Positions 15,268 through 27,851 of a stretch of 64,000 bases of DNA are shown piece after piece. Position numbers and translations under genes: made by a program. The stretch is from Candidatus Methanomethylicia archaeon (lineage in GTDB: Archaea; Thermoproteota; Methanomethylicia; Culexarchaeales; Culexarchaeaceae): contig JAVYVS010000002.1 of assembly GCA_038727515.1 (NCBI GenBank), positions 128,001 through 192,000 of the forward strand, given 5' to 3'. Numbering within the stretch: position 1 is the stretch's first letter; each line of letters begins with the position of its first letter. The notes beneath the pieces were generated by a model, which was given only the letters and a program-made list of their open reading frames with translations, made no database searches and was not told the DNA's origin.

Positions 15268-15323
15268 ATTAAACTATACTTTTAACATCTATAAAATTAT
15301 TAAGGAGTTTATCGAAGATTATT

Positions 15324-16271
15324 TTGAGGATTAAAATGCTTAATACATTACTTTTTAATCAAATAATTCCAGTGGGTTTAGGAACAATAATAATGCTACT
15401 TATAATTGTTTTAATTTTAGTCTTCATAATTTCCAGTGCAATTAGAGTTGTTAGGGAATATGAACGTGCAGTGATTTTTAGACTTGGAAGATGTATTGGA
15501 GCTAAAGGTCCTGGAGTAGTATTCTTAATACCATTCATAGATAGACCTGTAATTGTTGATCTACGTGAGAGATATCTTGAAGTTTCTAGGCAGACTTGTA
15601 TAACTAAGGATAATGCACCAGTAGACATAGACTTCCTAATATACTATAAGGTTATAGATCCATTGATGTCAACATTGCAAGTTAGGAATTTTGAGGGTGC
15701 AGCTGTTGGTATGGCTACAACAATCCTTAGAGCAGTTGTTGGAGATATATTGCTTGATGACGTCTTAGCTAGGAGGGAAGAGATAAATAGTATTCTACGT
15801 TTAAAACTTGATGAGGTTACTGAACGTTGGGGTATAAAGGTTAGTAGTGTTGAAATTAGAGAGATACTTCCACCAAAGGATGTTCAAGAGGCTATGATAA
15901 AACAGATGGCTGCTGAACGTAATAAGAGGGCTATGATACTTGAAGCTGAAGGTAGAAGGGAAGCTGCAATAAAAGTTGCTGAAGGTGAAAGGCAATCAAG
16001 TATTTTAAAGGCTGAAGGTGAAAGACAAGCGAGTATATTGAGAGCTGAAGGTTATGCTCAAGCATTGGAAACAATATTTAGAGCTGCTAGTAGATTAGAT
16101 TATAAGACTATGGCACTACAATACCTAGAAACTTTAAAGAGTTTAGGTCAATCTCCAGCTACAAAATTCATTTTCCCAATGGAATTCTCAGAATTAATAG
16201 CTCCAATAAGGAGATTTCTAGGTGAAGTTGAAGGTTCAAGTGAATCAAAAACTCAAGGTGAAAACAAATAG
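15324..16271 (+). CDS. SPFH/stomatin (band 7) membrane protein
   Basis: REYERAVIFRLGR, ITKDN, WGIKVSSVEI, QMAAERNKRA, AEG repeats. Confidence 0.93.
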   Translation: MRIKMLNTLLFNQIIPVGLGTIIMLLIIVLILVFIISSAIRVVREYERAVIFRLGRCIGAKGPGVVFLIPFIDRPVIVDLRERYLEVSRQTCITKDNAPVDIDFLIYYKVIDPLMSTLQVRNFEGAAVGMATTILRAVVGDILLDDVLARREEINSILRLKLDEVTERWGIKVSSVEIREILPPKDVQEAMIKQMAAERNKRAMILEAEGRREAAIKVAEGERQSSILKAEGERQASILRAEGYAQALETIFRAASRLDYKTMALQYLETLKSLGQSPATKFIFPMEFSELIAPIRRFLGEVEGSSESKTQGENK

Positions 16272-16278
16272 ATTAAAC

Positions 16279-16704
16279 TTAAAACTTTATAATCAATTTT
16301 TTGGGTACATCATCAATTATAACCACTTGACAATTTATCCTAGCTGATAAATCTATGTTTAAAAGCTCTAAAGCTCTCCTAACCTTATATAACCCTGCAA
16401 GTCTCTCATTCAATCTCTTTAAAATCTCATTTAAAATTTCAATTTCCCTTTCAGGTTGTGGATTTAATGATATCTCAATACCATGAAATTCAATTTCCTG
16501 CCTTCTACCAATATCGCTTGAATCCCCACTTGAAACCATTGGTCCAGCAATTCTCTTGTAGACTTCAATCCTCCTATTAACATCTTCAAGCATCTTCTGG
16601 TGTTCTATAATTAAATTTTGAACTTCTTTCAACTTCTCATCTACATAATCTGCTAATTCTTTAAGTGTTTGGAAGGTTTTTAACGCGCTAACCATTTTAC
16701 ACAA
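16279..16704 (-). CDS. Hypothetical coiled-coil protein
   Basis: 141-aa ORF: helix, short beta segment, helix, ending DDVPKKLIIKF; divergent from the TadC-like gene. Confidence 0.7.
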   Translation of the reverse strand: MCKMVSALKTFQTLKELADYVDEKLKEVQNLIIEHQKMLEDVNRRIEVYKRIAGPMVSSGDSSDIGRRQEIEFHGIEISLNPQPEREIEILNEILKRLNERLAGLYKVRRALELLNIDLSARINCQVVIIDDVPKKLIIKF

Positions 16705-16783
16705 ATAAAAGTTATATTTCCATATATTTTATTGTTTTCTTCGAAAACCTAATATTCCACTTATCTTAAAAGGTTCTTTTGAT

Positions 16784-18559
16784 GTGGCTTTGACGTTAAT
16801 TGACATTATCCATAGATATTTTGGTTGGGCTGGGAGAATCTTACTTAGATTCTATCCTAATATTTATTACGATATTAAAACTTCTGGTATTGGTATTCAT
16901 CCAGAGGTTTATGCTTCTATTGGCGGCTTCACATACATAATATCAATAATTATAAGTGTTGCCATTTTTATATATTCAATATTCCAATTACCGTTAACAT
17001 ATTTATTCTTCACAACCTTATTCATAATATTATTTCCTGTGGGTGTATTCATAATTTTGGGTTTAATTTTGCCGAAGGCTTTAAGTTTAAATAATGCTGC
17101 TGGATATGATCAGGAAGCTCCATATGCATTTGCATATTTAAGTATTATGGTTACTGGAGGCGTATCCCCATACGCTTCCTTTGAGCGTCTTGAAGCTGCT
17201 GAATCACTGTTTAAGAGGTTTTCAAAAACTGCTAAGAGGTTTAAGATTATGGTTAGAGCTATGGGTTGGGATCCATTATCAGCTTTTGAAGACATAGTTA
17301 GTAGAGTTAGAAGTTTCATGTTATCGGATGTTTTGCTTGGTTATGTTGCTACTGTGGGTGCTGGTGGTGATGTTGTTGATTATTTGATTAAGAGATCTAG
17401 GGATGTCTTTAGTGGACTCATAACTAAGATTAAATCTGCTGGTGAGAAAATGTCAACTTTATTAGAATCTTATCTTGCAGTATCATTCATCTTGTTGATG
17501 ACGATAAACGTCATGTACCTGATAAGTTTATCCATTGCTAGAATCTATATTCCAGGAGTAAACCTTTACACCCTATTCTTTTTCACATATATTTTAATGC
17601 CCTTCATCTCCCTTGTAATTCTCTATTTATCTGATATATTACAATATAGAGAGCCTGGTGTAATATGGGATCCATACATAATATTCCTATTAACCGCCAT
17701 ACCCATATTCATCTTCTTCACATATGTATTGATTGCACCCTTCTTTTATCCGGTGGAAATACCCATGATAGGCGATTTATCTATAAGATTAACATCAATG
17801 ATAATTTCAATTCTGAATTTTTTCAATGTCGATATTGTTTATGCACCTTCAATATCCACATCAATAGCTTTAGCCATATCTCTAATTCCATCAACACTAT
17901 ATGAAGCCTTTATATTTAGGAAATATAGTATGATTGCTAGTGGTGTTGTTAAATTCCTTAGGGATATTGTGGAAGTTAGGAAGACTGGTTTATCCCCTGA
18001 GAAATGCATTATAACTTTGGCTGATAGAGAGTATGGTGCTTTCTCAAAATATTTGAGGGAAGCTGCAAATAAACTTGCTCTAGGTTTGCCCATAGCTAAG
18101 GTATATGAAGATCTTATGAGAAAAATTAAGGTTTGGAGGGCTAACGTTTTTTTATATATGCTTATAGATGCTATTGAAGTTGGTGGTGGAACGCCTGAAA
18201 CCCTTGAAAACATTGCTTATTTCGCTGAAATGAGTGAAGCTGTAGAGAGGGAGAGAGCTGCATCAGTTAAAATACTACTAATAATACCATACTTATCAGC
18301 AATAATACTCGTAACTTCAATGATGTTTATAGCTGTATTTATGTCAACGGTGGCTGCTGGAATTGTAGAATATAGGGCTGCGATTAGAATTATTATGCCA
18401 TCAATAGTCTTCAACACCTTGTTCATGGGTTTAATTGCTGGGAAAGTTTCCACAGGTATTACTGCATCTGGATTTAAACATGCGCTAATGTTATCCATAA
18501 TTTCAACAATAACAATACTCTTAACACCTAGAATAGCTTCAATATTTGGGCTTGTTTAA
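16784..18559 (+). CDS. Type IV pilus platform protein (T2SS F / TadC / ArlJ-like, two T2SSF domains)
   Basis: EAPYAFAYLSIMVTGGVSP and FLRDIVEVRKTGLSPE domains, IEVGGG, GLIAGKVSTG...GFKHA. Confidence 0.9.
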   Translation: MALTLIDIIHRYFGWAGRILLRFYPNIYYDIKTSGIGIHPEVYASIGGFTYIISIIISVAIFIYSIFQLPLTYLFFTTLFIILFPVGVFIILGLILPKALSLNNAAGYDQEAPYAFAYLSIMVTGGVSPYASFERLEAAESLFKRFSKTAKRFKIMVRAMGWDPLSAFEDIVSRVRSFMLSDVLLGYVATVGAGGDVVDYLIKRSRDVFSGLITKIKSAGEKMSTLLESYLAVSFILLMTINVMYLISLSIARIYIPGVNLYTLFFFTYILMPFISLVILYLSDILQYREPGVIWDPYIIFLLTAIPIFIFFTYVLIAPFFYPVEIPMIGDLSIRLTSMIISILNFFNVDIVYAPSISTSIALAISLIPSTLYEAFIFRKYSMIASGVVKFLRDIVEVRKTGLSPEKCIITLADREYGAFSKYLREAANKLALGLPIAKVYEDLMRKIKVWRANVFLYMLIDAIEVGGGTPETLENIAYFAEMSEAVERERAASVKILLIIPYLSAIILVTSMMFIAVFMSTVAAGIVEYRAAIRIIMPSIVFNTLFMGLIAGKVSTGITASGFKHALMLSIISTITILLTPRIASIFGLV

Positions 18560-18577
18560 ATATTAAATCAATTAAAT

Positions 18578-19705
18578 TTAGCTTATATTAACTTTTATTG
18601 GAGCATTATACCCTATGCTTTTCATAACCCATTGAGCATCATCAACAAGTTTACCTTCAACATCAGAAAGTTTAACTCTTTTAAGTGAGAAACCCTTCTT
18701 TCTAACTTTAACTTGAAATGTTACAGTACCATCAATTAAATCAACCTTTAAATCTTCCATTATATACCCAAAGCCTTCTAAACTACTCTTAAAATACTCC
18801 AACGCTCTATCCCTAACCTTTTCCAAATCTATCTTAACTGGTTCCACCGTTACAATCTTCCTAGGTTTCCTCCTTTCCTCCTCAGCTTTTGAAATGATTT
18901 TTGGAAATGAAATTTTATCCATGGTCTTCTTCAATTCAGCTTCATCTTTATTTAGCAATTCAAGATCTTCCTCTTTTAATTCGTATAGAAAGACAATGTA
19001 TTTCCCCTCAGCTTTATTTAACTTCATTATCTCGTTCAATGCATTTTTACCAGTCAACACTTTATTAACTCCACTAATCATTGTTGAAATAACTTCTCCA
19101 TTTTTTAGTAAAATATCAAAACTCTTCCAATTACTCTCTCCAAGGAAGCTTACAAACATATACAAGATTTTACCTTTACTCTCAGCAATAATCCTTTCAA
19201 CAACTTTATTAATATCCTCCATACTCTCTAGAACATCCATTTCCTCCTTCAACTCTTCTTTATCCTTCAACATCAAATTTCTAATTAGTGGCATATTCAA
19301 CATCTTCCTACTATAATCATTTATGTTTACATGCGTTTTTACACCCTTAATTTCTCCACTACTAATAATGGCATTTGGATTTTCTTCCTCAAATTTTGAT
19401 AATTCCTCTTCACTAACTTCATATACTTCAACAATTCCAGCAACTTTATCTTTAATCTCAGAAATTTTCTCCCAACATTCATTTCCACAAATAACTTTTT
19501 CATTACTCTTCATCATGGCTAATGAAGGTTTTCCACCCTTAAAATCAATATGTAAATCGTATCCAGCATGATGATAAATAATTAACCCTTTAATCCTCCT
19601 ATTCCCTTTACTTTTCTCTATATCCTTTATCAAATCCCTCAATTTCTCTTCAGCTAAATTCACTATATCTAAAAGCTTTACATCTTTCCCCTCATTAGCA
19701 AACAT
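18578..19705 (-). CDS. Hypothetical protein with two tandem DUF2226/PATAN-like domains
   Basis: Repeated pattern ..GGKPSLAM..ICGNECW..IVEVYEVSEEEL and ..NGEVISTM..LTGKNAL..VFLYELKEEDL; downstream of the pilus ATPase. Confidence 0.55.
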   Translation of the reverse strand: MFANEGKDVKLLDIVNLAEEKLRDLIKDIEKSKGNRRIKGLIIYHHAGYDLHIDFKGGKPSLAMMKSNEKVICGNECWEKISEIKDKVAGIVEVYEVSEEELSKFEEENPNAIISSGEIKGVKTHVNINDYSRKMLNMPLIRNLMLKDKEELKEEMDVLESMEDINKVVERIIAESKGKILYMFVSFLGESNWKSFDILLKNGEVISTMISGVNKVLTGKNALNEIMKLNKAEGKYIVFLYELKEEDLELLNKDEAELKKTMDKISFPKIISKAEEERRKPRKIVTVEPVKIDLEKVRDRALEYFKSSLEGFGYIMEDLKVDLIDGTVTFQVKVRKKGFSLKRVKLSDVEGKLVDDAQWVMKSIGYNAPIKVNIS

Positions 19706-19795
19706 TTAATTACACCCAAATAACCAAATTAATTACTTTCTACTTTAATAGTATATGTAACATCTTTCATTTTAAATTTTTCTAAATTCTATAGT

Positions 19796-21367
19796 CTATA
19801 CCTTTCCCATAGATTCCATTTCTTTAACTGCTTCTTCATATACCTCCTTTGGATTGTAATGGTATCTAAATATCCATTTACTAACTTCCATAAAATCATA
19901 TACACCCTTCATCACAAGCCATCTTAAAACTGTACTCCTCCTATAAATCTCTTCCCTCAACTCATCTACACTTCTACCACTCATTTCACTAATTTTTCCA
20001 ATTAACCAAGAGTTTTCCAATGTAAATTTATGTTGATCTAAAGATGGATCCCATATGGACACAGTCCTATACTTCCCATAATCTTCTACTTCTTGCATAA
20101 TCCTAACCCTCCTCTCAGTTCTACCAATCTCCCCAATTGCAACTCTATCAATATGTAGAAATATATTCATTAATTTAACGTAGGTTTCAGGTATATTCAT
20201 GGGTGGAGATGTAATCCTCTTTATGGCATAATCCAGAGATTCAGCGTGTATTGTTGATATTCCACCATGACCTGTAGCCATAGCTTGAAATAGTACGAAA
20301 GCTTCTTCACCTCTAATCTCACCAACAATTAAATAGTCAGGTCTATATCTCAAAGACAATTTAATAAGATCAAAAAGTTTAATTTCAGTTATAGTTATAC
20401 CAACAGCATATGTAGGTCTAACAGTCAATTGAATCCAATTCTCATGTGGAAGATTAAGTTCAGGGGTATCTTCAACAGTCACAATCTTGAGACCAGGTCT
20501 AATAAATAGGCTTAAAGCATTTAGAAGCGTAGTTTTACCAGCACCAGTCCCACCGGAAATCATAATAGTCCTACCATAATCAAGCATAAGCCAAATATAT
20601 CCAGCCATAAACTCATCAATCACGTTGTCAGCTATAAGCTCAGTGGGAGAAAAAGGTTTAGCCCTAAACTTCCTAATGGTAAAAGTCGACCCAGCAGTAC
20701 TAACCTCAGAACCAAATGTTGCTGCAACCCTATGTTTCTCTGGAAGCATAGTATCAAGAGTTGGATATGCAAGACTAATATGTTTACCAGCCCTATGAGC
20801 AAGCTTCAAAATAAACTCATTTAAAACCTTAACATCCCTAAAAACAATATTAGTAGGTATACTCTCATAACGCCTATGCCAAACATAAATAGGCCTATTA
20901 ACACCAACACAACTAATATCCTCAACATTAGGATCAAGCATCAAAACATGAATAGGACCATAACCAAGCAAATCCCTCTCAACATAATACAGAACCCTAT
21001 CCCTCATAGCACCACTAAGCCTCAAACTACCACGATACCTATCAGCAATACGCCTAATCTCACTAAAAACATAACCCCTCAAATCCTCAGCAACACTATA
21101 AACCTTCAACTCCTCAGTAACAAAATCAACAAGCTTATCATAAACATCCCTCTCCTCATAACTAAGCCTATACTCATCAACATAATACGCAACAGCACCA
21201 CCCATCCAAGGAATCCTAACAATATAAACCCTAGCGAAAGGCTCAAAAACAGGATAACTCTCCAAAACCTCAAACCTCTCATCCAATGGAAGAAACTCCA
21301 CAGCCTTCTCAACAACCACCCTCCTAACAACACGAACCTTAGGACTAACAAAAGGAAGCCTAACCAT
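19796..21367 (-). CDS. Type IV pilus/secretion ATPase (VirB11/ArlI/CpaF family)
   Basis: DPNVEDISC, STFTIRKF, GGTGAGKTT, EDTPEL, LRYRPDYLIVGEIRGEE, TGHGGISTIHA. Confidence 0.95.
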   Translation of the reverse strand: MVRLPFVSPKVRVVRRVVVEKAVEFLPLDERFEVLESYPVFEPFARVYIVRIPWMGGAVAYYVDEYRLSYEERDVYDKLVDFVTEELKVYSVAEDLRGYVFSEIRRIADRYRGSLRLSGAMRDRVLYYVERDLLGYGPIHVLMLDPNVEDISCVGVNRPIYVWHRRYESIPTNIVFRDVKVLNEFILKLAHRAGKHISLAYPTLDTMLPEKHRVAATFGSEVSTAGSTFTIRKFRAKPFSPTELIADNVIDEFMAGYIWLMLDYGRTIMISGGTGAGKTTLLNALSLFIRPGLKIVTVEDTPELNLPHENWIQLTVRPTYAVGITITEIKLFDLIKLSLRYRPDYLIVGEIRGEEAFVLFQAMATGHGGISTIHAESLDYAIKRITSPPMNIPETYVKLMNIFLHIDRVAIGEIGRTERRVRIMQEVEDYGKYRTVSIWDPSLDQHKFTLENSWLIGKISEMSGRSVDELREEIYRRSTVLRWLVMKGVYDFMEVSKWIFRYHYNPKEVYEEAVKEMESMGKV

Positions 21368-21443
21368 ACAAACCCAAAAAAACTAAACACAACCAAAATA
21401 TAAACATATCACCAAAAATACAAAAAGAATACAAAACATATAT

Positions 21444-21497
21444 AAAAGAAAAACTTTAAATATTCCACACAATTCAATAGTATAAACAAAATGGTGA
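21444..21497 (+). promoter_or_regulatory. Pilin promoter (BRE + TATA) and SD
   Basis: aaaagaaaaac then TTTAAATA at 21455-21462; GGTGA at 21493-21497, 6 nt before the ATG. Confidence 0.65.
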
Positions 21498-21503
21498 ATA
21501 TAT

Positions 21504-21923
21504 ATGGAGAATAAAAAGAGTAAAGGTATATCACCAGTAATAGCAACAATAATAATGGTGGCAGTAGCAATAGTAATAAGCATTGCAGCAGCATTCTGGC
21601 TAACAGGACTAATGGGAGCATTCACAACATACGAAAACATAAGGATAATGGCTTACGCCAGCAGAAGTGGAAATAATTACTATATAAATGTAACTATACA
21701 AAATATTGGAAGCTTAAATGTAACTATAACACAATTTAATGTCGGAGGAATGAACGCAACAAATGTAATTCCAGATAAAACTAAATGGGTTATAGAACCT
21801 GGTGCGTTTAAAATCTTTCAAATTAGTGGCTTTACAACGGATAATTTCCGTCCCGGTAGTACCGTTAGAATAATTGTAGTGACTACAAGAGCATCTTATG
21901 AAGGTCAAGTAACCCTTCCATAA
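21504..21923 (+). CDS. Archaeal type IV pilin
   Basis: Class III signal peptide KKSKG/ISPVIATIIMVAVAIVISIAAAFW; NVT, NVT and NAT sequons; divergent from the pilus ATPase. Confidence 0.93.
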   Translation: MENKKSKGISPVIATIIMVAVAIVISIAAAFWLTGLMGAFTTYENIRIMAYASRSGNNYYINVTIQNIGSLNVTITQFNVGGMNATNVIPDKTKWVIEPGAFKIFQISGFTTDNFRPGSTVRIIVVTTRASYEGQVTLP

Positions 21924-22339
21924 ATCTCTTCATATTTTTACGATATTGAATTTACATAAGTGAAGAGTTACACTTTAAATTAACACAGTCAAATTTTTGT
22001 CAACAAGAAAGTTAAAAATCAAGTTATTAATTGAAATTTTCCAGTTAGAAGATAAAACTTTAGATGCCTCACCGAATGTGAGTCCTGAACTATGTAGTCT
22101 TTGATGTATATATGTAATCATAGTAGCAATTTCAAAATAAGATAAGTTTAAATATTTATTTAAGTTTGTAGGGGGTTGGAACTTTTGATGAAAGTTCATA
22201 TAATTTGAATTTTGTTCCTTCAGTTTGGCTTGTGGAATGAATTTAATATATAGTTGTTCCAAATATTTCAAGTGGATTTAAACATATTTTTATCTTTCAT
22301 TGGACTATTGTATAGGAATATGTAGATATAGTAGTTTAG

Positions 22340-22534
22340 TTGAAGAGATTTTTCGTTACGAGAAAGAAGGATAAAATTATGATATTGTGCTTTATATGTG
22401 TAGTATTGATTGTTTTTATGACATTTATTGTTCCATTGATCATCATTGGTACATCTTTAAATGATTACATAATGATTTTATATTGTGAAACTATATGTAT
22501 TGTAAACATTATTCTACCTATAAATAGCATATGA
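22340..22534 (+). pseudogene. Possible remnant of a membrane protein gene
   Basis: Basic N-terminus plus hydrophobic stretch, then stops, in an otherwise ORF-poor AT-rich tract. Confidence 0.25.
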
Positions 22535-22739
22535 TTTCTTTACAATATAAAATCATTAATAATTATAGTAATATGAAGGAAACATCAATAAATTAAGATG
22601 ATTATCCCAACATTTATGTCAATTAAATATTTAATAAGGAGCAACATGACCTAATGACCTATATTTATTTACTACTTCTTTTTCTTTAATATTTCTAGAG
22701 CTCTAATGATGATTTCTTATAAATAAATAAAGGGGTTAT

Positions 22740-23816
22740 TTAAATTTTTATTTTTGTTAATATATCGTTTATAAGAGTTTTCCTGTCTATTTGCCATCTT
22801 CCCTCTTTAAATGGTTCACCATAGAAGTAGTATCTCATGCTTGTTTTGTAATCTGCCCACATGAACTCCATTTCTTCCACTTTCCCCTGTATTATTCTGC
22901 CGAATTCCGATATGAAGGTGGGTGGTAGGAATATTTGTAGTATAAAGCCTTCTTTTAATGGTACAAATGTTGATTGAAATGGGAGTTCTTTTATTGCTGT
23001 AGCTATTTTTGCTGTTGTTGTTATTGGACATTTACATTTGAATATGAATTGATCAAATATCCTTGATGCATGTGTATAAACTACTACTCTAAAACCTTCT
23101 ATAACTCCATTATCAATGTAGAATGATATTCTCCTACTTAAATGGTATTCAGGTATCCCCGTCTTCTTACTAATGTCCTTTAATCTTTCCCTAGCATTTA
23201 TTGTAAGCTCCCTTAAAATAATCATATCCTTTTCATTCATCTGATGTAGTATTGATGGTGGGTAGGGATTTAATTCAGCTTTCTCTATACTTTCAATCTT
23301 CCTCTCCCAAACATTCCAATCTAAATTCCATGAATCTTCTCTAACATTATAACTTGAGAAATCGTTTTCATTATAAATCCATTTTGCTATAGTTGTATAA
23401 TAATTGTATCCTCTTATATAACCTAATTTTTCAAGTTCATCTAAAAGATTTATTAATAGTGGTTGTGAACCTCTAGGCATATTAAATACCATTAATAAAC
23501 CATTTACTGAGCCTAGAACCCTAATTCTATAACGTGTATATGGATGTAGATCACATACTTTTTCAATTATGGGTATATCCTTAAACTTAACATTTGAAAA
23601 AACAACTATTGAATCCATATCTAATGAGGGAGCACATATTTGTGCTGCAACATAATACAATACTTTACTTTCAATTAAATCTTTAAGCCTCTTAGATACA
23701 GTTTTAACATTTAAACCAGTGAGTTTACTTATTTCCACTACCTTTGAGAGAGGGTTTTTCCCCAACGCTGTAAGTATTTTGTAGTCTTCCTCATCTAAGA
23801 TACGCAACTTCATCAC
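22740..23816 (-). CDS. Tandem (double) Lrp/AsnC-type winged-helix regulator
   Basis: Two HTH modules, LDEEDYKILTAL..NP...EISKLTGLNVKTVSKRLKDL and MNEKDMIILREL..NAR..LKDISKKTGIPEYHLSRRI, each followed by a RAM-like segment. Confidence 0.8.
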   Translation of the reverse strand: MMKLRILDEEDYKILTALGKNPLSKVVEISKLTGLNVKTVSKRLKDLIESKVLYYVAAQICAPSLDMDSIVVFSNVKFKDIPIIEKVCDLHPYTRYRIRVLGSVNGLLMVFNMPRGSQPLLINLLDELEKLGYIRGYNYYTTIAKWIYNENDFSSYNVREDSWNLDWNVWERKIESIEKAELNPYPPSILHQMNEKDMIILRELTINARERLKDISKKTGIPEYHLSRRISFYIDNGVIEGFRVVVYTHASRIFDQFIFKCKCPITTTAKIATAIKELPFQSTFVPLKEGFILQIFLPPTFISEFGRIIQGKVEEMEFMWADYKTSMRYYFYGEPFKEGRWQIDRKTLINDILTKIKI

Positions 23817-23873
23817 CTCCAGCAGATATCGCTCTATTAGCTTTATGGCAATTGCTGAAATTCAATTTACCAC

Positions 23874-24119
23874 TTATTCTAGTGGTCCAGGGGCTCCACC
23901 TGGTGGATCAAAGGTTACGGTTTTTATTAATACTCCATCTTTAAATATTCCTATTGTTACCCAAGTTTTCCCATCTATTACTTCCACTGATATTACTTTT
24001 ACTTCCACCTTCTTTTCATCACAATCCTTTTTTGCTAGTGTTGGTGTTGCGTATAATACTGTTGCTAGGAGGGTTATTATTACTAAACTTAGTAGTAATA
24101 TTGTTTTTGTTTTTTGCAT
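23874..24119 (-). CDS. Small secreted protein (signal peptide plus about 52-aa mature part)
   Basis: MQKTKTILLLSLVIITLLATVLYATPTLA then a beta-rich segment ending FDPPGGAPGPLE; own TATA and SD. Confidence 0.75.
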   Translation of the reverse strand: MQKTKTILLLSLVIITLLATVLYATPTLAKKDCDEKKVEVKVISVEVIDGKTWVTIGIFKDGVLIKTVTFDPPGGAPGPLE

Positions 24120-24123
24120 ATAT

Positions 24124-24170
24124 TCACCACATTAAATTTTTGTTTTCTTTATATTTAAATTTTTCCTTTT
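24124..24170 (-). promoter_or_regulatory. Promoter (BRE + TATA) and SD of the small secreted protein
   Basis: Minus strand reads aaaaggaaaaa-TTTAAATA (24159-24152) and GGTGA (24128-24124); closely resembles the pilin promoter. Confidence 0.6.
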
Positions 24171-24315
24171 TATTGTTTTTTCATGCAATTTTTATCCATA
24201 TTTATAATTTTATCATAACCATTTTTTGCATTTTAAATTTCTCTCGAATTTTTAATAAATTAGTTAGCAATTTTGTGGTAAGATTTATATATGTATTTAC
24301 CATATATTTGCAATC

Positions 24316-24813
24316 GTGGGAAATAATTTTTCCATTCCATATTCAATATTTACTCTTTTTTTGGTTTCTTTATCTACTGTTCTCCCCATAATGGCTTGGG
24401 TTGATTCTCTTGTTCATGGTATTTATGGTGGAGGTGAATTACGCATAGACCTTTTAAATTATAATTATGATTCTAACATTGGATTTTATGTTTTTGATTT
24501 TAAGGTTTTTAATGGTTATGTGGAGTTTATAAATTTAATTGATGTTTCAATTAATGGTTTATCTTTTAAGGGGTTTGGTGAAAATGCGTATTTCTCTCAG
24601 CTTTCCCAATTAGAGTATGATTTTGGCATGATTTCTAGTAGGAATTATGCCAATAAGTTTTATATTACTATACTTGGGAAATCCACAATTTACTTAAAAC
24701 TTTATCTTCCAAAAACCATTTTTAACAATAATTGTATGAATTTCACTTTTAGGTTTATTAAGGGTTATGATAGTAGTAAGGTATTGTCTGTTGAAGTTGC
24801 TATGGTTAGATAG
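24316..24813 (+). CDS. Membrane-anchored protein, degenerate pilin-like
   Basis: N-terminal hydrophobic helix ending AWVDSL..G, then ELRI..FKVFNG..INLIDVSING; TTTATATA about 25 nt upstream of the GTG. Confidence 0.6.
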   Translation: MGNNFSIPYSIFTLFLVSLSTVLPIMAWVDSLVHGIYGGGELRIDLLNYNYDSNIGFYVFDFKVFNGYVEFINLIDVSINGLSFKGFGENAYFSQLSQLEYDFGMISSRNYANKFYITILGKSTIYLKLYLPKTIFNNNCMNFTFRFIKGYDSSKVLSVEVAMVR

Positions 24814-24861
24814 CTATTTGTGATTTGGTAAGGTATTTATATTTAACATTACCTATTTACT

Positions 24862-26073
24862 TTGATATTTATGTTGAAGTTTTATTTGGAGTGTAGTGGT
24901 TGTGGAGAAGTTTATGATGTTGATAAACCTATTAATGTATGTTTAAAGTGTGGTGGTGCACTACTATACAAATATGATTTTTCTAATTTAAAGTTTGATA
25001 AAAGTGTTTTTAGTTTTAGATTTGATAGTTTTTGGAAGTATATAGACTTTCTACCTTTAAGGGGTGTTCAAGACGTAATTTCTTTAGGTGAAATTTTCAC
25101 TCCAATTATACGTTTAGATGGAGATTTATCTTATGGTTGTAGAAATCTTTTTGTTAAAGATGATGGTCATTTGCCCACTGGAACTTTTAAGGCTAGGGGT
25201 ATGGCTTTAGCAGTATCCATCCTTAAGGGTTTGGGTGTTTCTAGAGTTGCAATTCCAAGTGCTGGTAATGCTGCTGCAGCTTTATCTGCTTATGGTGCTA
25301 GAGCTGGATTGGAGGTTTATGCCTTTATGCCTAAAGATGCTCCAATAAGTACTTTGAAGGAATGTGTTTATATGGGTGCTAAGGTCTATTTGGTTGATGG
25401 TTTAATTAATGATTGTGCCAGTATTGTTTCTAGGCTTAGGGATTTTTATGGATGGTTTGATGTTTCCACTAATAAGCAGCCATATAGGTTTGAAGGTTAT
25501 AAGCTTATGGCATATGAGATTTCAGAGCAATTTGATTGGGATCCTCCTGATTACATAATATTTCCTACTGGTGGTGGTGAGGGTGTTATTGGTCTTTGGA
25601 AGGGGTTTAATGAGCTTATGGAGATTGGCTGGGTTGATAATATGCCGAAGCTTATAATTGTTCAATCCACTGGTTGTATGCCTTTGGTTAAGGCTTTCAA
25701 TGAAAATATGAAGGAAGTTTCTGATGTTTGGGTTAATGCTCAAACTATTGCTGCTGGTTTAAGGGTTCCAAAGCCTTATGCAAGTTATTTGATTCTTAAG
25801 GCTGTTAGGGATAGTGGTGGTTATGCTATTGCTGTGGGTGATGATGAGATTATGGATGCCATGAAGATTCTATCTAGAAATGGGTTTTTCACATGTCCAG
25901 AGGCTGCTTCAACTTATGCTGCTCTTAAACATCTACTTGATGATGGTATTGTGGATTCATCTGATAAAATCCTATTATACTTTACTGGTTCTGGTTTAAA
26001 ATATCTTGATGTTTACGCATTGAATGTGGATAATCTTCCAATATTACCTAAGGATGCTACTTCTCTTCCATAA
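24862..26073 (+). CDS. thrC: Threonine synthase (PLP fold II) with N-terminal Zn ribbon
   Basis: CSGC..CLKC, PTGTFKARG, PSAGNA, FPTGGG, CPEAAS, FTGSGLK. Confidence 0.85.
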   Translation: MIFMLKFYLECSGCGEVYDVDKPINVCLKCGGALLYKYDFSNLKFDKSVFSFRFDSFWKYIDFLPLRGVQDVISLGEIFTPIIRLDGDLSYGCRNLFVKDDGHLPTGTFKARGMALAVSILKGLGVSRVAIPSAGNAAAALSAYGARAGLEVYAFMPKDAPISTLKECVYMGAKVYLVDGLINDCASIVSRLRDFYGWFDVSTNKQPYRFEGYKLMAYEISEQFDWDPPDYIIFPTGGGEGVIGLWKGFNELMEIGWVDNMPKLIIVQSTGCMPLVKAFNENMKEVSDVWVNAQTIAAGLRVPKPYASYLILKAVRDSGGYAIAVGDDEIMDAMKILSRNGFFTCPEAASTYAALKHLLDDGIVDSSDKILLYFTGSGLKYLDVYALNVDNLPILPKDATSLP

Positions 26074-26842
26074 ATATTTCTCCATTAATATTTATTGCTG
26101 TTATTTCTATTAGGTCTCTTAATCCAGATGTGGATATCTTCTTCATTAATACATTTTGTATTTGGAATATTCCAGCTGGATTCTCCATAACCACTTTTAC
26201 CCTTAATGGTTTTATATTTCCCTCTTCTATTTCAACTCTTTTTATTGCTAATGCTGATAATGAGTGTATATCCTTTTTACCTAGATCGTATGGTATTCTA
26301 GCTCTCCCCTCAGCCATGTCTAGTCCATCTGCAACTTTTACTATTCCTGCTTCTAAGCTTAAGCATTGTATTTCATCGTCACTTGAATATATGCAGTGTA
26401 GAACTTCACATTTAATCTTTACTCTATCTTCTAATATATCATATATGTTTCTCAGTATTTTGTTTAATGGTTTTTCAATTATGTAGCATCCATTTTGTGG
26501 ATGTTGAATTCTATGTATACAATTTCCAATATCGTGGAGGTATGCTCCAAGTAATATTGTTAATTGTGCATCTTCCATATTCATTCCATGATCTAAAATT
26601 ACATTTGGAGTTCTATGTTTACTTATTATCTTCAATATTTCTAATGCTGCTCCTGAAGTTATTCTTGAGTGTACTGGTCCATGATCATTATACTTCAATC
26701 TTTTCACAGCCATTATATTTGACATTTTGAGTAGGGTTTGTATTTCAATGCTTCTTTCAAGCATATTCCATGCTTTTAAAATCTTTCCATTGTTTAAATA
26801 TCTTTTAATTAATGTTTGTGATACTTCCACCATACTATTCAC
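26057..26842 (-). CDS. HD-domain phosphohydrolase
   Basis: YNDHGPVH, YLHDIGN, VADGLDMAEGRARIP. Confidence 0.88.
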   Translation of the reverse strand: MNSMVEVSQTLIKRYLNNGKILKAWNMLERSIEIQTLLKMSNIMAVKRLKYNDHGPVHSRITSGAALEILKIISKHRTPNVILDHGMNMEDAQLTILLGAYLHDIGNCIHRIQHPQNGCYIIEKPLNKILRNIYDILEDRVKIKCEVLHCIYSSDDEIQCLSLEAGIVKVADGLDMAEGRARIPYDLGKKDIHSLSALAIKRVEIEEGNIKPLRVKVVMENPAGIFQIQNVLMKKISTSGLRDLIEITAININGEIFMEEK

Positions 26843-26888
26843 GAAATCATTATATTCATTTAAGCATTTATCTTAATCGGGTGTCTAT

Positions 26889-27362
26889 TTGAAGGTTTTA
26901 TGGGCTCCTTGGAGGGTTGAATATATTTCTGCTCCCAAGGATGTTGAATGCTTTTTCTGTGTTTATCCAAAGCTTAATCGTGATGATGAATTATTCATTC
27001 TAAAGCGTGGCTTACATTCATATATTGTTTTGAATGCATATCCATATAATAATGGTCATTTAATGATTGCTCCATATAGGCATGTTATATATCCCAATGA
27101 GCTTTCACGTGAAGAGGTTTTGGAGATTATGGATTTCATATCTCTATCCATTGATGTTTTGAAGAGGGCTTTTTCACCTGATGGTTTTAATATTGGTGTT
27201 AATATTGGTAGAGCTGCTGGTGCAGGTGTTGGACATTTACATTTCCATGTTGTTCCAAGATGGTTTGGTGATACTAATTTTATGCCTATACTGGCTGATG
27301 CAAAAGTTATTCCACAACATTTAAAAAGTACATTTGAAGTTTTAAAGAAATTTATTGATTGA
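26889..27362 (+). CDS. HIT-family nucleotide hydrolase/phosphorylase
   Basis: LWAPWRVEYI, NAYPYNNGHLMI, HLHFHVVPRW histidine triad. Confidence 0.93.
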   Translation: MKVLWAPWRVEYISAPKDVECFFCVYPKLNRDDELFILKRGLHSYIVLNAYPYNNGHLMIAPYRHVIYPNELSREEVLEIMDFISLSIDVLKRAFSPDGFNIGVNIGRAAGAGVGHLHFHVVPRWFGDTNFMPILADAKVIPQHLKSTFEVLKKFID

Positions 27363-27851
27363 TTACCTTTTATATCCAATGCTCCTTAGAAATCTCTTCC
27401 TCTCCTCTATCCCCTTTTCATCTTCAACTCCTAGACTTTTCCCTCCATCTACAATTCCAAGTATAGCTCTACCTTGATCTGTTTCTCCAATTATAACTTG
27501 TACTGGATTTGCAGTTGCACAATATATGTTTACTACTTCCGGTACTGCTTTAACTCTATCTAATACATTTATTGGGTATGCATTCCTCATAACTATTATG
27601 AAGCAGTGTCCAGCTGATAATTTAAGTGCATTTTCAATAGCAATTTTCCTAAGTTCTTCATCATTTCCATCATGTCTTATTAAACGTGGTCCTGAAGATT
27701 CACAGAATGCAATTCCAAATTTAACATTTGGCGTTGAATTCATCATAGCTTCATATAAATCTTCAACTGTTTTTATGAAGTGGCTTTGACCAAGTATTAT
27801 ATTGCATCCCTCTGGAACATTTAAATTTACAATTTCCAATTTAATACTCAT
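27363..27851 (-). CDS. Adenosine-specific kinase / AMP-binding protein (DUF355)
   Basis: [45 protein letters not shown]. Confidence 0.9.

Follow-up and report, generated by a model that had tools for sequence, protein, structure and literature searches.

We show that a pilin gene of a type IV pilus locus in a Candidatus Methanomethylicia archaeon sits at a conserved hot spot of strand-specific mutation pressure, and that the pattern is not a gene system. On either side of the pilin, the strand that runs outward in the 5′-to-3′ direction is depleted in A and C: free sites and pyrimidine-only sites have gone to T, and purine-only sites to G. The window, by which we mean the whole stretch of 64,000 nucleotides that was analyzed, covers positions 128001–192000 of contig C2 of the genome G000, a metagenome bin of 1.59 Mb in 12 contigs with a GC content of 0.33. 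The closest named relative of its pilus ATPase, at 89% amino-acid identity, comes from a 'Candidatus Methanomethylicia archaeon' bin of a hot-spring series. The parts of the window that carry the pattern are listed here in window coordinates; aa stands for amino acids, ORF for open reading frame and AT3 for the A/T skew at third codon positions of the plus strand.

15300–20100, both strands: left shoulder with a weak AT3 shift, from the third-position profile
20100–21660, both strands: left arm, plus strand A/C-rich, from composition and third-position profile
19796–21367, minus strand: type IV pilus assembly ATPase (PF00437, PF23989)
21504–21923, plus strand: UpsA-like type IV pilin, divergent from the ATPase (NF046073, TIGR02537; the UpsA match is below threshold)
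23850–27400, both strands: right arm, plus strand G/T-rich, from composition and third-position profile
23874–24119, minus strand: 81-aa ORF with a hydrophobic N-terminus, from the ORF reading
24316–24813, plus strand: 165-aa ORF of no known family
24862–26073, plus strand: threonine synthase (NF006050, 481 bits)

In the following, K denotes G or T, M denotes A or C, and K3 is the K fraction at third codon positions of the plus strand. K3 is about 0.38 at 19.9–20.3 kb and then falls through 0.25 and 0.12 down to 0.02 at 20.8–21.45 kb. The third positions between 20775 and 21450 are 105 A, 42 C, no G and 3 T (n=150), followed by a block of 78 A, 42 C, 1 G and 1 T; the tract 20775–21450 is the most extreme skew tract of the whole 1.59-Mb genome. 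Because the plus strand of the left arm is A/C-rich, the minus strand is G/T-rich, up to about 98% at third positions. Indeed, on the coding strand of the ATPase the fraction of codons ending in G or T is 0.96 in codons 1–50 and 1.00 in codons 51–100, stays at 0.96–1.00 over codons 1–150, and is about 0.5–0.7 beyond codon 300. Without interruption the arm covers the 5′ two-thirds of the ATPase, crosses the 136-bp gap and takes in pilin codons 1–52, which encode the signal peptide and the helix and end in A or C, and the pilin head that follows has mixed endings. Behind the arm, the left shoulder reaches back to about 15.3 kb; AT3 there is about 0, compared with about −0.25 at baseline, in genes of either orientation. 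The right arm shows a K3 of 0.65–0.83 from about 23.7 to about 27.3 kb and about 0.55 afterwards, with an AT3 of −0.4 to −0.64 that fades to baseline; it peaks at 25500–25950 (20 A, 6 C, 34 G, 90 T) and spans plus- and minus-strand genes as well as the non-coding DNA at 24136–24315. Genome-wide, in windows of 100 codons, K3 has a 0.1 percentile of 0.09 and a 99.9 percentile of 0.86. The pilin locus reaches 0.00, and its left/right K3 contrast of +0.70 is the genome maximum.

The skew had originally been predicted from hand counts, and these were exact: 37 A, 15 C, 8 T and 0 G at 21361–21420; 33 T, 12 G, 15 A and 0 C at 24481–24540; and 2 of the first 62 ATPase codons ending in A or C. The third-position profile, the genome-wide percentiles and the size of the contrast establish that the anomaly is real and stronger than first described. 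Its proposed mirror symmetry holds insofar as both arms are G/T-rich in the outward direction; the arms are unequal in G000, with the left one saturated and the right one not. Similarly, the left anomaly does extend from the ATPase through the 5′ end of the divergent pilin gene, as had been claimed, yet this crossing of two genes is limited to the first ~50 pilin codons, which are also A/C-ending at a second pilin locus that has no divergent ATPase. The fall of K3 along the ATPase is a gradient. A single step is mildly disfavored in G000, where two steps gain 5.1 log-likelihood units over one step (2 extra parameters) and a sigmoid gains 2.0 (1 extra parameter), and it is clearly disfavored in the relative G007, where the sigmoid gains 7.9 (1 extra parameter). 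The original prediction had been staked on the absence of a clean step and on the recurrence of the pattern elsewhere; a single step was not seen, and the pattern recurs at other pilin loci.

The composition of the silent sites points to mutation rather than codon choice. Over ATPase codons 1–200, 4-fold sites are 0.92 T, 0.05 G, 0.03 A and 0.00 C; 2-fold pyrimidine sites are 0.98 T and 2-fold purine sites 0.96 G. The baseline for minus-strand genes is 0.29 T, 0.79 T and 0.25 G, respectively, and the threonine synthase reaches 0.71 T at its 4-fold sites. The loss of A and C from the outward strand implies A>T, A>G and C>T changes, and it is these three types that we infer for the exposed strand from the 4-fold and 2-fold composition. 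The non-coding DNA is skewed in both arms. Moreover, codon positions 1 and 2 and the amino-acid usage shift in the same way in the strongly skewed ATPase orthologues, in which V, G, F, L, C and W jointly account for 0.35–0.36 of the residues versus 0.28–0.31 in weakly skewed ones. The earlier idea that we are looking at a footprint of strand-specific damage or synthesis is thus borne out by the 4-fold and 2-fold sites and the amino-acid shift. Comparable changes are known from other settings. The non-transcribed strand of mammalian genes shows A>G, C>T and A>T asymmetries, of which the C>T excess is limited to the first 1–2 kb (PMC2927911), and the loss of A and C from strands that are kept single-stranded is the standard explanation of the mitochondrial gradient (PMC3269012). 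Missing repair genes were considered as a cause and rejected: most relatives have UDG and NucS. No endonuclease V (PF04493) turned up in the window's family (six genomes, G000–G005, some of them 95–99% complete), and it is present in 6 of 7 genomes of neighboring families; these include the strongly skewed G007 and G009, so its presence does not correlate with the strength of the skew.

The ATPase orthologues of six independently assembled relatives, four of the same family (82–89% ATPase identity) and two of another family of the order (67%), carry the same 5′-to-3′ gradient, with 0.8–1.0 of the codons ending in G or T over the first 150–200 codons and about 0.4–0.6 thereafter. In more distant ATPase homologues and in G008 the gradient is slight or absent; the pilin N-terminus is A/C-ending even in this weakly skewed genome. 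In G007 and G009, a 163-aa ORF and/or the threonine synthase gene lie directly after the pilin and are about 83–100% G/T-ending on the pilin strand, the threonine synthase orthologue of G009 about 87–95%; the threonine-synthase arm of both genomes, at about 90–100%, is saturated. The 163-aa ORF on contig C1 of G007, which directly follows the pilin and matches the 165-aa ORF of G000 by position, has about 95% of its codons ending in G or T and abounds in V, G, F, S, L and C; here the mutation pressure is strong enough to remake the protein. The arm in these two genomes takes in an oppositely oriented gene at full strength; the G009 gene at −2819 to −2100 is an example of such a gene. Between the arms of G007 and G009 there is only the ~270-bp pilin head and almost no non-coding DNA. 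In four genomes the A/C-rich run stops where the conserved helix gives way to the variable head, +120 to +135 nt from the GISPV motif, and the regulator-bearing island downstream of the pilin varies between families. We found no account of such a pattern in Methanomethylicia in the literature searched, and one may exist elsewhere.

The pilin locus is the strongest case of a genome-wide saw-tooth that rides on a chromosome-scale A/T skew. AT3 is about −0.3 along all 308 kb of contig C2 (1–307698, window included) and about +0.3 at C1:310000–679000, in both cases regardless of the gene strand; about 51% of the genes are on the plus strand. On other stretches of 45–130 kb of this genome AT3 is near 0. 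In 69% of 858 genes the coding strand begins G/T-rich and drifts to A/C-rich, and on genome average the G/T excess takes about 1 kb from the transcription-unit start to decay. Abrupt switches between adjacent 150-codon blocks (contrast at least 0.45) have the pilin-type polarity in 8 cases and the opposite polarity in 0. The resets are absent at operon-internal and tight convergent junctions and present at divergent junctions and at gaps of at least 60 bp, where both arms deviate by about 0.05–0.10 in any gene arrangement; the reset gaps are probably promoter-bearing. In tandem gene pairs the G/T rise falls between −30 and 0 relative to the start codon. Some twelve other loci are near-saturated, among them a CARF gene, cas4, sugar enzymes, the stretch upstream of PolB and a second pilus operon on contig C6. 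Given this saw-tooth and the other saturated tracts, the pilin locus is the extreme of a general phenomenon with no private system, and the special undescribed pilin "system" of the original prediction gives way to a saw-tooth that resets at many intergenic gaps.

Individual sites illustrate the range. The second pilus operon (C6:47213–52589) carries pilin, ATPase and membrane protein on a single strand; its pilin N-terminal helix is A/C-ending and the remainder G/T-ending, and its ATPase has a K3 of 0.81, up to 0.91. In the M20-family peptidase gene at C1:380331–381755, codons 186–266 are 100% G/T-ending, 5′ windows go down to 0.33 and the gene mean is 0.53, which makes this run an isolated saturated patch within one gene. 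Sharp A/C-to-G/T switches (contrast about 0.55) are also found at the convergent junctions C1:313091–313127 and C1:245763–245885, one of them with a gap of only 37 bp; at such junctions both genes consequently end A/C-rich on their coding strands.

As the cause we tentatively favor, with a probability of about 0.4, single-strand damage on the outward strands that results from outward, R-loop-prone transcription. Transcription leaving the pilin/ATPase control region in both directions would keep these strands single-stranded in every generation, as the non-template strands of transcription bubbles or R-loops. A leftward transcript would cross the pilin 5′ end and enter the ATPase, a rightward one would read on into the downstream genes, and collisions with replication forks may worsen the exposure. 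In single-stranded DNA at hot-spring temperature, C would be lost to T, A to G and purines to T faster than back-mutation could restore them, and the signal would fade where the transcripts terminate. The ATPase, the 165-aa ORF, the threonine synthase and the C6 pilus operon, all G/T-rich on their coding strands, count for this reading, and so do the tie of the resets to promoter-bearing junctions, the single polarity of the abrupt switches, the ~1 kb decay, the rise at −30 to 0 and the matching mutation types.

A good deal weighs against it. The G/T excess on the non-template strand from the start onward is seen for the ATPase, the 165-aa ORF, the threonine synthase and the genome average, but not at the 5′ end or in the promoter region of the pilin, nor for the 81-aa ORF or the opposite genes in the arms. 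Indeed, the first ~50 pilin codons, the pilin promoter region and the 81-aa ORF are A/C-rich on the coding strand. With the wrong sign at the pilin 5′ end, the two-promoter picture needs an unproven antisense or long-leader transcript, and the TATA-like motif that is rightly placed inside the pilin for an antisense start is not conserved among the genomes compared. EF-1alpha, EF-2, the large ribosomal-protein operon and the flanks of the rRNA operon, whose high expression we assume from gene identity, are at the local baseline; since the most transcribed loci show no hyper-skew, expression level alone cannot drive the skew. Genes of opposite orientation share arms and shoulders at full strength, as in G009 at −2819 to −2100 and in the left shoulder of the window. 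At gaps of at least 60 bp, the 3′ ends of genes have arms of about the same strength as the 5′ ends, sharp switches occur at convergent junctions too, and the archaellum operon is A/C-rich on its coding strand. The 3′-end arms, the indifference to orientation and the convergent switches are what is expected from a start or restart of synthesis at the DNA level. A scan for bacterial-type promoters and terminators is uninformative for an archaeon.

Next in our ranking, and in our view doubtful, comes the possibility that DNA synthesis starts or restarts locally at the pilin gene, either at a weak, Orc1-independent site primed by an R-loop or D-loop, or at a fork barrier with one-sided chew-back of the nascent strand and poorly coupled restart; the outward strands would then be exposed over a few kb in each generation. 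Such a site would explain why the left domain is unbroken over ATPase, gap, pilin promoter and pilin 5′ end, why arms and shoulders are indifferent to gene orientation, why the reset arms at gaps are independent of gene arrangement with switches at convergent junctions as well, and why highly expressed genes are without signal. The position is kept across an order, and the polarity agrees with the large M-to-K transition between the orc1/cdc6 genes of G003. Abrupt resets with gradual drift in between resemble the replication-direction saw-tooth of eukaryotic chromosomes. On the other side, the baseline skew does not differ in sign between left and right beyond ~6 kb, the local amplitude of about 0.95 is far above the replication plateau of about 0.3, no orc1/cdc6 gene lies nearby, no ORB-like repeat was found, the core in G007 and G009 is merely the ~270 bp of the pilin head, the orc1 genes themselves are without a skew switch, and the evidence on which strand is the leading one in this clade points both ways. 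What speaks positively for local synthesis is its geometry only. Still less probable is the broader picture in which transcription or a D-loop primes a start or restart of synthesis at the pilin gene in each cell cycle, independently of Orc1 and at a conserved position, and in which the saw-tooth arises from replication or repair at many dispersed, gap-centered sites, giving a eukaryote-like pattern.

An ordinary replication origin, which had been offered as one explanation, finds no support. In G000, AT3 is about −0.25 on either side beyond ~6 kb of the pilin and shows no long-range sign change; the long-range skew likewise keeps its sign around the pilin locus in G003, G007 and G009. Matches to Cdc6_C in G000 are found only on contigs C3 and C5 and none on C2, with the local regulator not compared with WhiP. 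No repeats resembling an origin recognition box (ORB) were found at the locus, only short, chance-like repeats with a largest family of 4 copies of 14 nt at 86% identity. We looked for a skew switch next to the orc1 genes and saw none. With an amplitude of ~0.95 against a plateau of ~0.3, fork direction alone cannot make the pilin skew. Together with the ~270-bp core in two relatives, the same-sign background and the missing orc1/cdc6 genes and ORB-like repeats speak against a classical origin.

The polarity rule that the original prediction took as established is itself in question, because the only sharp large-scale switch has the opposite polarity, the orc1 zone is a 200-kb ramp, and an inverted third-position GC skew has been described at a Haloferax origin in a 2026 paper (PMC12999951). 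In G003 (contig C1, 1.08 Mb; 225000–485000), orc1/cdc6 genes at 225 kb and 484 kb flank a 200-kb A/C-to-G/T ramp with a step at neither; the same ramp pieces are divided between contigs C3 and C5 in G000. The opposite-polarity switch, G/T-rich and then A/C-rich, lies in G000 at C1 ~205 kb (C1:194700–245800) beside hypF and the archaellum operon; an 18-kb stretch there has a K3 of 0.05–0.2 irrespective of gene orientation, and genes on the two sides point away from the switch. It adjoins a hyper-skewed block of 18–40 kb. The only sharp large-scale switch of G003, at ~1071 kb, is also of opposite polarity and hyper-skewed, like that at C1 ~205 kb, and the two could mark the main origin or the terminus. 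Genes slightly favor the G/T-rich strand (53%, p=0.02). This excess and the orc1 positions favor the bacterial rule, in which the G/T-rich strand is the leading one, whereas the sharp opposite switch and the genes diverging from it favor the reverse.

The remaining alternatives we consider far less probable. According to one, the pilin head or the island is repeatedly swapped by homologous recombination, so that resected 3′ tails or repair tracts in the conserved flanks bring damage into the chromosome. The end of the A/C-rich run at the helix/head boundary in four genomes would fit, as would the regulator-bearing island that differs between families; 3′ tails of incoming fragments would, from their geometry, show the observed polarity. 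In the relative G004, three contigs carry the ATPase (C20, C118 and C44), of which two span codons 1–328 and stop at 328 and the third begins at codon 288; these contig ends suggest two co-existing alleles of the N-terminal ATPase/pilin side. Against such swapping, tblastn with the pilin head and blastn with the core matched only the locus itself in the genome, so that neither silent cassettes nor a second core copy were found, and there is no G4 motif within the window. The ~98% saturation needs, by our estimate, a strand-specific input of about 50 times the back-mutation rate and therefore an event in nearly every generation, which rare fixed replacements cannot provide. Additionally, many unrelated loci, PolB, cas genes and sugar enzymes among them, have a switch of the same kind, and resection from a central break would yield the opposite polarity. 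The recurrent pilin-cassette replacement that had first been proposed is unlikely on these grounds. Just as improbable in our view is selection on RNA or codons, in which G/T endings would attenuate the ATPase through T-tract termination or slow codons, for example, and A/C endings would give the pilin an unstructured, well-translated 5′ mRNA. One gene has indeed kept the pattern for a long time in evolution, an A/C-ending pilin N-terminus is seen at both pilin loci and in weakly skewed G008, and hydrophobic segments are slightly more A/C-ending across the genome; this last effect is real but small (~0.1). However, the skew extends into non-coding DNA, the amino-acid composition moves with the bias, the strand bias is common to genes of both orientations, and EF-1alpha and the ribosomal-protein genes have no codon preference on the G/T versus A/C axis. 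Translational selection for A/C-ending codons in highly expressed genes was rejected because EF-1alpha, EF-2 and the ribosomal-protein genes are at the local baseline. Least probable of all, to the point that we discount it, is an artefact or a one-off event: an assembly chimera, a recent inversion or a patch gained by horizontal transfer. G000 is a metagenome bin in 12 contigs with an estimated contamination of 2.9%, which leaves room for it, but six independently assembled relatives carry the same gradient, the boundary is graded where an inversion, chimera or foreign patch should give steps and be absent from relatives, and the amplitude is above anything that inverted background sequence could yield. 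The claim that the anomaly is graded and neither an inversion nor a chimera therefore stands, on the sigmoid and two-step fits and the six relatives. What probability these readings leave goes to other causes.

Several known systems share features with the pilin locus. Touchon in 2005 and Huvet in 2007 reportedly described saw-tooth skew "N-domains" and replication-direction profiles in human and yeast chromosomes. N-domains have the same single-polarity jumps (8 versus 0 in G000) with gradual drifts between them; the period in G000 is kilobases and not ~1 megabase, it resets at intergenic gaps, and it is known here from sequence alone. Neisseria pilE/pilS resembles the locus in its conserved pilin N-terminus and variable head, with a boundary where the composition switches, but neither silent cassettes nor a G4 initiator were found in G000. 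We know of no strand-composition footprint for pilE/pilS. The mammalian 5′-end transcription asymmetry (Polak, Querfurth and Arndt 2010, PMC2927911) shows the same A>G, C>T and A>T changes, strongest within 1–2 kb of the start and then decaying, and the mean profile of G000 has the same shape. The pilin locus differs from it in being near-saturated at silent sites, altering amino acids, spanning opposite genes, sparing the most expressed genes and having the wrong sign at the pilin 5′ end. As in the skew switch at bacterial oriC and Pyrococcus oriC (PMC3269012), the plus strand turns from A/C-rich to G/T-rich at one point, with the polarity of diverging forks under the bacterial rule; the pilin effect is, however, local (~1.5–6 kb), leaves the background sign unchanged, has no adjacent initiator or ORB, and has an amplitude of about three times the plateau. 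In vertebrate mitochondria, too, the strand exposed longest as single strand loses A and C, graded by exposure (PMC3269012), whereas here the site is a chromosomal pilin locus with two mirror arms and no known strand-displacement replication.

Strand bias is usually weak and of chromosome scale, whereas here a local process put ~98% of the silent sites in one state over 600 bp, altered the protein composition and kept its position across an archaeal order. It offers a read-out of habitually single-stranded DNA in an uncultured thermophile from sequence only, and the genome has dozens of weaker sites to compare it with. If transcription is the cause, this would be an unusually strong natural transcription-linked mutagenesis that is able to shape proteins; if it is DNA synthesis, a mode of replication or restart not described in archaea. 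Such tracts distort analyses of codon usage, horizontal transfer and dN/dS, and origin prediction from skew is unsafe in this clade.

The other features of the locus are given below.

16784–18559, plus strand: pilus membrane platform protein of the T2SSF family (PF00482, E 2e-17)
18578–19705, minus strand: 375-aa ORF within the pilus locus, no family match
21924–22739, non-coding: AT-rich spacer of 816 bp, GC 0.22–0.28, with one 20-nt hairpin (arms 22470–22489 and 22539–22558)
22740–23816, minus strand: regulator with two Lrp/AsnC-type winged-helix domains, conserved in Methanomethylicia

With its PilB/FlaI-type ATPase and PilC/FlaJ-type membrane protein, and with a class III signal peptide on its pilin, the locus has the make-up of an archaeal type IV (Ups-like) pilus. 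An RNA family search of the 21924–22739 spacer gave no match near any family threshold, and the spacer between the pilin and the downstream genes is missing in two same-order relatives. The regulator gene is of mixed composition without the arm signature, and the regulator is not at the pilin locus of G009. The region upstream of the pilin carries a TATA-like CTTTAAATATTCC and GGTGAATATAT-ATG. Its segment 21431–21522 recurs inverted at 24099–24181 before the 81-aa ORF with a 74–77% match; the two inverted upstream copies with the double winged-helix regulator between them look, from their sequence, like a small co-regulated unit.

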